In this document: positions 27,631 to 36,372 of the stretch, one piece after another
How the letters are laid out: each line of letters opens with the position of its first letter
Position numbering within the stretch: the first letter of the stretch is position 1
DNA from: Rotaria magnacalcarata
Lineage: Eukaryota
Assembly (NCBI GenBank): GCA_965140935.1
Contig: CBCSLL010000017.1
Location: 161,104-206,116, forward strand
Reading direction: 5' to 3'
DNA length: 45,013 nucleotides
Made by a program: the position numbers and the translations under genes
The notes under the pieces: generated by a model
The model's input: the letters and a program-made list of their open reading frames with translations, nothing else
Database searches by the model: none
Told to the model about the DNA's origin: nothing

Positions 27631-30600
27631 TCAAGACGAGTACCATTGTACAAGATAGAGATTGCCTAATGTATCACCGGCTACAACACCAAATATTCCA
27701 TTGTTACTTTGTTTCCATGTACGCATTTGTGTAATAGGTGCTGGTACAGGATATTGTCCAAGGATATCGTCTATATCTGCATCTAGTGGTGAGTCGTTAT
27801 CATTTGTATTCATCAATTTTGAATAATCATTTCTACATTGTACTCGAATGACATTATCGTGGCCACTTGTAAATATAAATTCATTGTTGATCGAACATAG
27901 GGCTGTAATTGCTCGTGATTTTGACGATATACAACTTCTATGCCATGTTTTTATGTCACTAAATAAGTTTGATGTCGAAAAAAGATTTCCATTTGTTGTA
28001 CCCAAGTAAAATAGTTCTTTGCTATCAAGACTTTCAATTGATGTTATCCATTCCGATGGAACTGATGTTCGATATTCAATTTTCGATGTATAAGATGCAA
28101 ATAATTTGCTATCTGTTGAATGGATTAATGATAAATCATATGAACATAGTTCATGACTTGTCGAACCAATTGTTAAAATACAATGGTTATGTTCATTTAA
28201 TGTTAGGCAAGATGATAATGGCCATTGACATGTTGCTGTCTTATATGTTTTCAGGCGTTCCAATGTAGATGATGCATAAAGATGGAATGTAAGTGAATCG
28301 AATGATTGATTTTCGCCAACAACAAAATATGGCATATCATATTGACCGGCAACAAATGAAACAGGTCCATTTATTGTTGTATCAGTTTTTAAACGTTTTA
28401 TTGAACATTTATCTTCGTTTTTGTTATTTGTAATTGTCCAAATTTTAATTTTTTTATCAACCGAACCAGTTACAAGAAAATGATGTTGAGCGTCAGAACG
28501 AACTAAAGCCATACCAAGAATAGTTTCATCGTGTGCTTTGATTGATTGTATAATATGAAACGGTTGTTTAGACATTCTAGTCTTTGCCATGTCTGTATCC
28601 ATATCGCAATCTTCATTTTTCGTTGATAATAATGACCAAACGAATAGATATGCATCACGTGAAACAGTAAAAACAAGAGAATTATCACGCGAGACACAAA
28701 TCGATGTAACTTCATCTAAATGACTAACCGGCTGAGCTATTTGAGGTGTCATTGCTGATGATGTTGAATCATAATTTGTAAATGCATTCATTGGAATTTG
28801 CCACGAACGCACTGTTTTATCAAGTGATGATGTTAGAATTGATTCATTACTAACAACAATATCATTCAATGGTTGTGCATGTGCATCATAAACACAACGC
28901 TGTTCAGGATCTGTTGGACGCCATATACGTATTGAACCGTCTTCTGATGCGCTAACAACAAGCATTGTATCAACTGTATGTGTTGTACGTGAAAGTTCTC
29001 GTTCTTGTTCTTCGACTATATTTCCCCAGTTCGAATCTGCATCCTTCTCATTTTTGTGATCGACACCTTTCAATTTTACCCACAAGTCACATGAAGTTAC
29101 TTTTTCTGTATGACCACGTAAACATGTTATTTCAGTACCTTTATGAGACCATACTCGAACAGTATTATCTAATGAACCTGAAACGACACAACCATATGAA
29201 AAGCAAACTGCATTAACCGAAGCTTCATGACCGCGAAGTGTTACGCGAGCTTCTTCAACGTTAGCTGAAGCAACTTCCATAGAATCGTCGTCAGTTTTTG
29301 CTACTTTCGGTATAGTATTCCAAATTTTCAATGTATTATCATTGGATGCAGTTACAAGCAAACCATTATTTGTATTGGATAAAGCAATATCATTGATCCA
29401 ATCAGCATGACAATGAGCAAGTGTATTCGAAAGTGCCACAACATATTTGGTTGAATATCGACTGATGGCCCATATATGTACTTGACCATCACGACTAGCT
29501 GATATCAATTGATTTGTTTCGTTGTTAAATGCTATACCTGTTACTGGTGTACGATGTTCAGTTAAAATTTGAGCTGGTTCATATGATGACCGTTCAAAAT
29601 ATTGTGATATTACATAAATACATACGGTTGCATCTTCCGAGCCTGTTGCAATGACTTTCATTTTACCAATAGCACATGATAGAACAGCTGCTGTATGACC
29701 CTTGAGTGTTGCAGTTTGAATACGAAGATCAGTACGTAAACCTAAATCTTTCAAATCATAAATGCGTGAATTACTATCACCCGATGCTGATATTAGAATG
29801 TTTCCGGATGATGGCGCAAATCCAAGACGATGAATACGACCTTGATGATAATGAAGTTCTTGTTCGGTAGTACCATTTTGTATATCGAATATTCGTATTG
29901 AACCCGAATGATATCCAGCAATAATATATTCTCCTTCGGGATGAATTATTATATTCGATACAGAGCCCCATGTTTCATTAGAAATAATCATTTGACATTG
30001 ACCAATAGTCGATGAAAATACTCGTACACGACCATCATTACCTGCCGATGCTAATGTTGATCCATTGGGTGAAAAATAAATTGAACTTATACGAGCTGAT
30101 ATGAGACCAACTTGACTGCCAGTTAAAGCATTCCATAAACGACATTCACCATCGATTGAACACGATGCTATATAACGGCCATCAGCAGAATAAGCAACAG
30201 TTTTTATAGAACTTAAATGTCCACGCATAACTGATTTACGTTGGCCATTAGCTACATTCCATTGTCGAACAATACCATCCCAACAACCAGTTACTAACAT
30301 GAAACCATCGGGATGAAATGCAACAGTTGAGACTGGTTTAGGATGTAAACGTATTTCTGTTTCTTGTCGACCTTTTTGTAAATCCCATATACGTACATAT
30401 GAATCCCATGAGGCTGAAGCAAATTGTGTACCACGTTGGTTTGAACATAGTTCTGAAACTCGTTTATTATGTGTTGGTGTAAGTATATTTAAACGGTGAC
30501 CATTTGATACATCCCAAATCGATAAACCACCATCGTTACTACCACTTACTAAACGATCATTACCAGCAAAACATACAGCCGATATTGGTGCAGCATGACC

Positions 30601-30683
30601 GGCAAATAATTTTAATAAACGAGCTGTTGACGTATTATAGAGACGAACTAAACAATCAGCAGAACCAGCAGCTAGAAACATGC
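27631..30683 (-). CDS. TEP1: TEP1-like exon 7 (WD40 repeat array, about 20 repeats; stop TGA at 27633-27631, minus strand)
   Basis: Repeated GH…S.S.DG….W[DN] units. A 59-nt intron (30684-30742, GTAAAT…TTTTAG) rejoins it in phase 1 to exon 6. The joined sequence reads …AVSPSGMFLAAGSADCLVRLYN, a seamless WD blade. Whole CDS is 8367 nt, i.e. 2788 aa. Confidence 0.85.
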
Positions 30684-30742
30684 CTAAAAGAAATAATAAA
30701 AGTGTCATGCATGATATTTTTTGTTTAAAGTTTTTAATTTAC

Positions 30743-35381: not shown

Positions 35382-35516
35382 TTTAAGAATAAATTCTGGA
35401 TCTTTGTCAACAACTAAGTTAGCAAGACGAATAAGTTCATTTCGTTTTGAATCTGTTGCTTTTCTTAGATCGGGTTGACTTAATAATGAATCAGCCAATG
35501 AATTAAGAAGACTTTT
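35382..35516 (-). CDS. TEP1: TEP1-like exon 2 (KSLLNSLADSLLSQPDLRKATDSKRNELIRLANLVVDKDPEFILK)
   Basis: Clean 135-nt exon. Acceptor tctatttatag|, donor CTTAAA|gtaaaa. No ATG, so an upstream coding exon is required. Confidence 0.65.
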
Positions 35517-35583
35517 CTATAAATAGACACAAAAGAAAATCGATTTATTTTCTAAACGAAAAAACAATAGACGAATATCAGAC

Positions 35584-36372
35584 TTTGATCGATTTAATGC
35601 CAACATTGGAATCATCATCACTGGTATTGTCACTTTCAAGTTTATTATAGATTGAAGAAAATGGATCCATACGAGGACGTTTTGCTGCTGGAACATGATA
35701 ATGTAAATCAATAGCAAGACGACTTGCTTCAGGTTGAATATTCTCAATATTATATTTGCGTTCACTGTCCACAGAACGTGTAACCGTTGTACTTGTCTTT
35801 CTTGTTTCTAATATAGATTTCTTTGGATTTTCCTGTTCTAATGATTTATTTGTAACTGTTGATTCTAAAGTTTCAGCTTTACGTTTTCGACTTAAACTTG
35901 TTTCACTTGTGAACAATGATGGATTATTTAAATTCGACGATGAAAGCAATGTATTATTAGTGGGAAATGCTGCAGTGGACAGAAATGATGATGTCGTAGA
36001 CGTAGCATTGAATAATGTTGATGAGGATGTTTTAGGTGCAGTAGAAAAGAGAGATGATGAAGTTAATGATTTCAATGGAGTATTTGATTGAGTCGATGGA
36101 AAAGTTGGTTTAACTGTAGTATTTATTAAGGTTGATGGTGCTGATATTTTAGATGAAGTTCCCAACAGCGTTGATGAAGTAAAAAGACTCGATGGTTTGC
36201 TTGTACTCGATCCTGAGAGAAGGGAACTTGTTGTATTAAGTGTTGATGAAGATAAAAGACTTGAGCCTTGTAACAATGAACTATTGGTAAGCGTTGTACT
36301 TTTTGTTGACAAGAGCGAACCTTTAGTAGACAATAATGAGGATGCCGTCGATGGCTTCTTTGGATCAGCCAT
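35584..36372 (-). CDS. TEP1: TEP1-like gene, exon 1 (ATG 36372; Ser/Thr/Leu-rich low-complexity N-terminus with KRK NLS-like patch)
   Basis: Open 263-codon frame MADPKKPSTASSLLS…. I joined it to exon 2 through a weak GTCTGA donor that overlaps the in-frame TGA. The alternative is a separate small gene ending at 35578. Confidence 0.45.

Follow-up and report, generated by a model that had tools for sequence, protein, structure and literature searches.

A probable seven-exon TEP1 orthologue in the bdelloid rotifer Rotaria magnacalcarata: gene model, splicing and a predicted NADase domain

Gene model and the junction between two long reading frames

Does the minus strand of positions 27631-36372, within a 45,013-nucleotide (nt) stretch of Rotaria magnacalcarata DNA (contig CBCSLL010000017.1, assembly GCA_965140935.1; this whole stretch is called the window below), encode one protein or several? 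The species belongs to the Philodinidae, a family of bdelloid rotifers. Two long minus-strand open reading frames (ORFs), 27631..30708 (1025 amino acids, aa) and 30705..33530 (941 aa), overlap here by 4 nt, and further minus-strand ORFs are listed upstream at 33611..34252, 34560..35219, 35337..35498 and 35578..36372. ORFs of about 1000 codons are improbable by chance at the GC content of about 31-37%. With a probability of about 0.95, we read the region as one protein-coding gene of seven exons, the orthologue of TEP1 (telomerase protein component 1). Joined by conceptual splicing, the exons amount to 8367 nt, that is 2788 codons and the terminal stop codon as the only stop, and all six introns have GT..AG borders (Table 1).

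A preliminary description of this DNA had proposed a single gene hidden behind four ORFs. We retained the single gene, but the count was loose, as five of the seven exons fall within ORFs of 200 aa or more, the other two being short. The five exons and the TROVE domain that it had placed upstream of the two-ORF junction were recovered, but the P-loop motif GQQGSGKT sits in the 941-aa ORF (exon 6) and not further upstream as described. The proposed length of 2788 aa was reproduced exactly by the seven-exon model and is also that of the deposited protein CAF2050813.1. An alternative acceptor for intron 1, at 35552, was rejected as it breaks the frame.

The overlap of the two ORFs falls within intron 6, which we confirmed from the sequence at the position and with the length, phase and border motifs proposed before. 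Its edges read CCATCGG/GTAAATTAAAA...TTATTTCTTTTAG/GCATGTTTCTAGC (slashes mark splice sites; the acceptor side is also given as TTTCTTTTAG/GCATGTTT). When the intron is spliced out, the frame continues as ...IRCLAVSPSG/MFLAAGSADCLVRLYN..., a join that is gap-free in the alignment of orthologues and restores the continuous WD40 blade that had been predicted. When it is retained, the upstream frame ends in ...SPSGKLKTLNKKYHA followed by a stop codon at 30705-30707; the ATG of the downstream ORF (30708) lies inside the intron. In total, 19 GT..AG pairs near this junction restore the frame. Only the pair 30742/30684, which has the best donor and acceptor of the 19, keeps the alignment gap-free and preserves all conserved residues; the other 18 delete conserved residues and were discarded.

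The alignment (MAFFT) comprised the 2788-aa model and 16 orthologues: six other bdelloid models (Rotaria, Adineta, Didymodactylos and one JGI sequence) and sequences from Lingula, bivalves, a nemertean, a sea urchin, amphioxus, Aplysia and Amphimedon. No gap was observed at any of the six exon junctions, which sit in highly conserved strings (PTPET/WETQ, NMIKVG/ISEKHH, DN/IIIVSDG and SPSG/MFLAAGS), and the TROVE profile matched as one stretch over introns 1-4. In addition, we retrieved the orthologous loci of R. sordida, Adineta steineri and D. carnosus (the last one partial) and mapped each junction. All six intron positions are common to R. magnacalcarata and R. sordida, and the first five are common to A. 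steineri as well (lengths in Table 1). Common introns have identical positions and differing sequences between the species. At the site of intron 6, the coding sequence of A. steineri is contiguous (tca ggt, Ser-Gly). Since this orthologue reads straight through the site, the 59 nt are an intron, and the proof is about as strong as sequence alone can provide. Furthermore, exon 6 and exon 7 each showed a ratio of non-synonymous to synonymous substitution rates (dN/dS) of 0.24-0.31 (Nei-Gojobori, against R. sordida and A. steineri), indicating similar purifying selection on both halves of the gene.

Could the two ORFs nevertheless be adjacent genes, one for a protein with TROVE, TeTIR (a TIR-like NAD+ hydrolase, or NADase, domain described below) and NTPase domains that stops at 30705-30707, the other for a WD-repeat protein that starts at ATG 30708, with the 59 nt left unspliced? 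Both ORFs are long and intact, the second opens with an ATG and the unspliced upstream frame does stop at this point. However, the ATG is intronic and no orthologue contains an equivalent of the peptide that it would add (MTLLLFLLG), whereas SPSG/xxLAAGS is unbroken in all of them, and A. steineri has no intervening sequence whatsoever. Moreover, the junction blade would be incomplete in either product, and the RNA-seq-guided BRAKER models fuse both ORFs. We consider two genes highly improbable. Only slightly more credible, and still very unlikely, is a single gene in which intron 6 (or another short intron) is at times retained, which would give a truncated isoform that lacks the WD40 region and could act as an unregulated or differently regulated NADase/NTPase. 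Such a transcript would run at once into an in-frame stop and encode a clean protein from TROVE to the helical domain; intron 6 also lies near the start of the WD40 region, and isolated human TeTIR is described as active and toxic in one preprint (10.64898/2026.09.21.753143). On the other hand, no retention of intron 6 is in evidence, and an intron-bearing transcript would probably be subject to nonsense-mediated decay. A. steineri does without intron 6 altogether, hence no regulatory role conserved across bdelloids is needed.

Intron presence varies within the bdelloids, with intron 6 missing from A. steineri and intron 5 from D. carnosus. Intron 4 of D. carnosus measures 374 nt, compared to 56-114 nt in the other three species. 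Over exons 6 and 7, the dS to A. steineri (0.42-0.47) is barely above that to the congeneric R. sordida (0.35-0.37), despite the different families; strong AT or codon bias may have compressed it.

Domain architecture and assignment to TEP1

The domains of the 2788-aa protein follow each other in the order TROVE, vWA-like region, DUF4062/TeTIR, STAND P-loop NTPase, winged helix, helical domain and about 21 WD40 blades (scores in Table 1). The preliminary description had derived a TEP1 gene from TROVE, a NACHT-type NTPase and WD40 repeats in one product. Pfam matches and the RefSeq TEP1 entries that match best outside the rotifers support this assignment. The claimed architecture was right as far as it went; it had missed the vWA-like (DUF5920) and DUF4062/TeTIR domains. 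The Pfam search gave no family match for aa 1-263. The NTPase was picked up through AAA_16 and NPHP3_N, and its region aligns to orthologues that carry precomputed PF05729 (NACHT) hits.

The number of WD40 repeats, previously put at about 20, was taken from the WD40 profile together with an AlphaFold2 model built for the 1016 aa encoded by exon 7 from an alignment of 33 sequences (mean pLDDT 80.9; me9e907ac0bf5). The model is almost all beta, with 80 strands of which five have double length, equivalent to about 85 strands. It suggests that exon 7 forms about 21 four-stranded blades, which would fit three seven-bladed propellers. An ad hoc hidden Markov model of the WD repeat, iterated from one regular-expression seed, recovered only about 12 repeats with poor boundaries and was set aside in favour of the AlphaFold2 model.

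To place the protein among its relatives, 1664 aa were used as a query against 5.8 billion proteins. Other bdelloid orthologues were returned first (64-83% identity). The best matches outside the rotifers were RefSeq entries named 'telomerase protein component 1', with 36-39% identity over 86-100% of the query and lengths of 2400-2900 aa, from brachiopods, molluscs, nemerteans, echinoderms, hemichordates, cephalochordates and sponges (among them Lingula, Aplysia, Strongylocentrotus, Branchiostoma and Amphimedon). In this forward direction, every named top match outside the rotifers was TEP1. The rotifer protein is a canonical invertebrate TEP1 orthologue.

Two of the matching profiles, HTH_NWD1 and NPHP3_N, speak for an NWD1/NWD2-like or other TeTIR-NACHT-WD paralogue, and the TeTIR-NACHT-repeat family has several subfamilies (10.64898/2026.09.21.753143). 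Proteins such as NWD1, NWD2, NPHP3 and the APAF1-like STAND proteins resemble rotifer TEP1 in that TeTIR or another effector is followed by an NTPase, a winged helix, a helical domain and repeats, but they lack the N-terminal TROVE/vWA RNA-binding module. A combination of TROVE and vWA ahead of TeTIR is described as restricted to TEP1 and its orthologues (10.64898/2026.09.21.753143), the TEP1-specific propeller families exceed their cut-offs, and all top named non-rotifer matches are TEP1. We give a paralogue practically no chance.

Compared to vertebrate TEP1, the rotifer protein shares the order of TROVE, vWA-like region, DUF4062/TeTIR, STAND NTPase, helical domain and about 21 WD40 repeats. 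Both propeller families specific to TEP1, the second and the C-terminal one, match as well, and the catalytic Glu is conserved along with most of the residues that have been tested by mutation. It differs in its Ser/Thr-rich, low-complexity exon 1, in a sub-threshold NACHT score, in two substitutions close to the active site that are conservative or peripheral (R908K and R954Q) and in a variable TROVE linker that a short RGG tandem repeat has expanded. N-terminal repeats (Pfam TEP1_N) are known from vertebrate TEP1 as a vertebrate feature; we treated their absence from the rotifer protein as not defining for the wider TEP1 family. Ro60, bacterial Rsr and other TROVE proteins (PDB 9l5y, 9kop) have the TROVE module in common with the rotifer protein and gave weak PDB matches (E about 1e-6); Ro60-type proteins, however, are about 500-540 aa long and consist of TROVE plus vWA only, without TeTIR, NTPase or WD40. 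The earlier statement that TROVE is otherwise found only in Ro60 is roughly correct provided that Ro is taken to include the Rsr-type TROVE proteins of bacteria and Tetrahymena p80.

We also asked whether the tandem repeat in the TROVE linker is an RNA-binding insertion peculiar to rotifers. In other Rotaria species, the RG-rich stretch is shorter and lacks the tandem repeat. The idea was dropped because several other phyla also have a variable, RG-rich linker, for instance in Lineus and Mercenaria.

The TeTIR domain and a possible role in vaults

DUF4062/TeTIR is the only TEP1 domain with demonstrated enzymatic activity. The domain has been described as a TIR-like NADase, named TeTIR or NIR (10.64898/2026.05.01.722283, 10.64898/2026.09.21.753143, 10.64898/2026.09.04.749371), and also acts in bacterial anti-phage systems (10.64898/2026.09.04.749371). 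NADase activity is conserved in TEP1 of zebrafish, Amphimedon and Dictyostelium (10.64898/2026.09.21.753143). In human TEP1, the role of E1008 was reported in two of these preprints (10.64898/2026.05.01.722283, 10.64898/2026.09.21.753143); F902, R914, R942, C959, R976 and E1008 are needed, whereas R908A and W943A have milder effects (10.64898/2026.09.21.753143).

In the PDB search, a strong match was given by one solved structure only, human 11gz_A ('Telomerase protein component 1', 220 residues), which aligns to aa 965-1179 with E=4.3e-52 and 84 identical columns out of 217. Through this alignment, the human residues were mapped to the rotifer as F902 to F971, S905 to S974, R908 to K977, R914 to R983, R942 to R1011, W943 to W1012, R954 to Q1021, C959 to C1026, R976 to R1043 and E1008 to E1076. 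The mutation-tested residues F902, S905, R914, R942, W943, C959, R976 and E1008 are thus kept. As most of the catalytic set is conserved, the rotifer TeTIR domain is predicted to be catalytically competent. Taken alone, NADase activity of rotifer TEP1 is likely.

By analogy with mammalian TEP1, the TROVE/vWA module would bind small non-coding RNA (vault RNA, telomerase RNA), and this binding would dock the protein inside MVP vault particles. In mammals, the module is described as binding vault and telomerase RNAs and directing the protein to vaults (Poderycki et al. 2005, cited in PMC3762200). The TeTIR domain would deplete NAD+, with an activity that, going by mammalian work, rises with oligomerisation. 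As in STAND proteins of the APAF1 type, the NADase would probably be controlled by NTPase-driven oligomerisation, and the WD40 propellers would act as the sensor or as a scaffold. MVP genes are present in the bdelloid Adineta vaga and respond to desiccation and radiation; five of them were over-expressed upon rehydration or irradiation (PMC10809525). Vault shells probably exist in bdelloids, and bdelloids probably have NAD+-consuming vaults like other animals. Any link between rotifer TEP1 and stress is speculative. We think it unlikely that the protein is an active, vault-resident NAD+ hydrolase in the bdelloid response to stress or anhydrobiosis, beyond a role as a housekeeping ribonucleoprotein component.

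Splicing and single-transcript status are supported by comparison and gene prediction. Several points speak against the gene model and function presented here. Pfam NACHT (PF05729) reached 15.8 bits, under its 26.7-bit cut-off, so that of the Pfam set expected beforehand TROVE (PF05731) and WD40 passed and NACHT fell short. R908 is K and R954 is Q in the rotifer, the sole differences among the mapped residues, and R908A lowers activity according to one preprint. RNA binding, vault association and NADase activity are ascribed to rotifer TEP1 by analogy. In addition, no vault RNA, telomerase RNA or any other Rfam family was found in the 45-kb window at gathering thresholds; with Rfam and ARAGORN combined, a Y RNA, a tRNA or another structured RNA near the gene was likewise discarded.

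Table 1. Features of the predicted TEP1 gene and its product (positions are those of the window; aa, residues of the 2788-aa model)
Feature	Position	Strand	Details
Coding region, complete	27631..36372	-	ATG 36372-36370, stop 27633-27631; 7 exons, 2788 aa; product identical to CAF2050813.1 / CAM4743509.1
Exon 1	35584..36372	-	aa 1-263; Ser/Thr-rich low-complexity N-terminus; no Pfam match; conserved among rotifer orthologues
Intron 1	35517..35583	-	67 nt, GTCTGA...TTATAG; R. sordida (60 nt) and A. steineri (54 nt) have it at this site too, with a similar GTTTGA donor
Exon 2	35382..35516	-	aa 264-308; start of TROVE
Intron 2	35331..35381	-	51 nt, GTAAAA...TTTTAG
Exon 3	34564..35330	-	aa 309-563; TROVE including variable RG-rich linker
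21-nt tandem repeat	34872..34958	-	4.1 copies, 95% matches; codes for RGGRGA(D/N) units in the variable linker of TROVE
Intron 3	34509..34563	-	55 nt, GTAAGT...GAATAG; interrupts conserved PTPET/WETQ; also in three other bdelloids
Exon 4	34390..34508	-	aa 564-603; carries LPFMAMLRNLRN, located at aa 588
Intron 4	34312..34389	-	78 nt, GTATGT...TTTAAG
Exon 5	33615..34311	-	aa 604-835; end of TROVE and start of vWA-like region
Intron 5	33550..33614	-	65 nt, GTAAGT...TTCTAG; in R. sordida and A. steineri, absent from D. carnosus
Exon 6	30743..33549	-	aa 836-1771; vWA-like region, TeTIR, NTPase, winged helix, helical domain, first WD strands
Intron 6	30684..30742	-	59 nt, GTAAAT...TTTTAG, phase 1, within first WD blade
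Exon 7	27631..30683	-	aa 1771-2788 plus stop; WD40 propellers
Introns 1-6, R. magnacalcarata			67, 51, 55, 78, 65, 59 nt
Introns 1-6, R. sordida			60, 67, 65, 114, 58, 74 nt; all six positions common
Introns 1-6, A. steineri			54, 54, 60, 56, 57 nt, absent; introns 1-5 common
Introns 1-6, D. carnosus			no match, no match (partial locus), 54 nt, 374 nt, absent, 148 nt
TROVE, PF05731			aa 260-724; profile positions 17-442 of 442 in one stretch; 333.9 bits (cut-off 23), E=2.5e-99
DUF5920, PF19334, vWA-like region after TROVE	33276..33485	-	aa 858-927; profile match, 33.1 bits (cut-off 27)
DUF4062 / TeTIR / NIR, TIR-like NADase domain, PF13271	32520..33164	-	aa 965-1179; 53.9 bits (cut-off 24.7)
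E1076 codon	32829..32831	-	counterpart of human TEP1 catalytic Glu E1008 (11gz alignment)
STAND P-loop NTPase domain	31869..32423	-	AAA_16 at aa 1212-1339; sub-threshold NACHT at aa 1226-1396
AAA_16			aa 1212-1339; 37.5 bits (cut-off 32.6)
NPHP3_N			31.0 bits (cut-off 24.8)
Walker A / P-loop GQQGSGKT	32343..32366	-	aa 1231-1238
Walker B-like VICIDGIE	32061..32084	-	aa 1325-1332; orthologue consensus there LVxFIDGxDxL
HTH_NWD1, NWD1-like winged helix-turn-helix	31347..31664	-	aa 1465-1570; 27.6 bits (cut-off 27)
APAF1_C-type helical domain	30894..31037	-	aa 1674-1721; 29.1 bits (cut-off 22.8)
WD40 region	27634..30833	-	aa ~1741-2788; about 21 blades, split by intron 6; E=2.4e-92 (cut-off 27 bits)
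Beta-prop_TEP1_2nd, PF25047	29086..29802	-	aa 2066-2304; 199.5 bits (cut-off 89)
Beta-prop_TEP1_C, PF25048	27643..27762	-	reaches last profile position (73/73); 82.9 bits for whole protein (cut-off 32)
Stretch cut from CAF1250551.1	about 29178..29232	-	54 nt, flanked by GT..AG, evidently called an intron; encodes GHEASVNAVCFSYGCVVS
AATAAA, candidate polyadenylation signal	27506..27511	-	about 120 nt past the stop codon; sequence only

Deposited models and neighbouring genes

The 2788-aa protein is identical to GenBank CAF2050813.1 / CAM4743509.1 (UniRef100_A0A816PP32) from R. magnacalcarata. These rotifer records are labelled 'unnamed protein product' or 'TROVE domain-containing protein', whereas the invertebrate RefSeq records are named TEP1. 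The R. magnacalcarata assemblies were annotated by BRAKER 2.1.2, which was guided by conspecific RNA-seq (Nowell et al. 2021, PMC7943196). With an identical entry from an RNA-seq-guided annotation, the single-gene model was therefore already public and is partly transcript-based. The concern of the preliminary description, that an annotation made ORF by ORF would miscall the gene as several proteins, is hypothetical, as the public annotation already holds the same single-gene product. Our analysis yields nothing new in kind and its significance reaches little beyond housekeeping. What is gained is confirmation that the preliminary description, made from the raw letters without database searches, had arrived at exactly this seven-exon gene of 2788 aa, a proper name (TEP1 orthologue) for an unnamed GenBank protein, a flag on a spurious 54-nt intron in CAF1250551.1, and the comparative proof of intron 6 together with the absence of introns 6 and 5 from one bdelloid lineage each. 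Of current interest are the catalytic residues of the TIR-like NADase (DUF4062, 2026 preprints), which are conserved in the rotifer copy.

Window positions 17647-44925 match contig CAJNOW010000142.1 (assembly GCA_905273325.1) in reverse orientation with 99.7% identity. The model from this sister assembly, CAF1250551.1 (2770 aa), lacks aa 2256-2273, GHEASVNAVCFSYGCVVS, which form the conserved start of a WD blade and are kept in all 15 other aligned orthologues. This conservation makes the 2788-aa model the better one; CAF1250551.1 probably contains a false intron where the stretch should be coding. A third deposited R. magnacalcarata model (P0002, 2486 aa) is 302 residues shorter, missing aa 2397-2698 of our model in the WD40 region, probably owing to a mis-called long intron or an assembly gap. 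The deposited orthologues of R. socialis, R. sordida and A. steineri have 2766, 2758 and 2732 aa, respectively, and bdelloid orthologues from other species are 60-84% identical across the exon-7 (WD40) region.

Just downstream of TEP1, a 194-aa minus-strand ORF (26192-26776) was tried as an additional TEP1 exon. It was rejected, since the TEP1_C profile is already complete just before the stop at 27631 and the deposited annotation treats the ORF as a separate gene. It is identical to CAF1250572.1 ('Uncharacterized protein'), which has no Pfam match in the deposited annotation. Although annotated separately, CAF1250572.1 shares a 90%-identity cluster with the 2788-aa TEP1, which suggests that the two were linked by an artefact of clustering or by a read-through model that fuses them in some assembly.

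The neighbouring genes were placed by transferring coordinates from the annotation of CAJNOW010000142.1 (~17650-26800 and ~36970-44900). They encode a TMEM127-like protein, an inward-rectifier K+ channel (IRK), two small proteins without a recorded Pfam match and a protein with LDLa and MAM domains. Upstream of TEP1, the same transfer places a 576-aa protein with a faint LRR_6 match.

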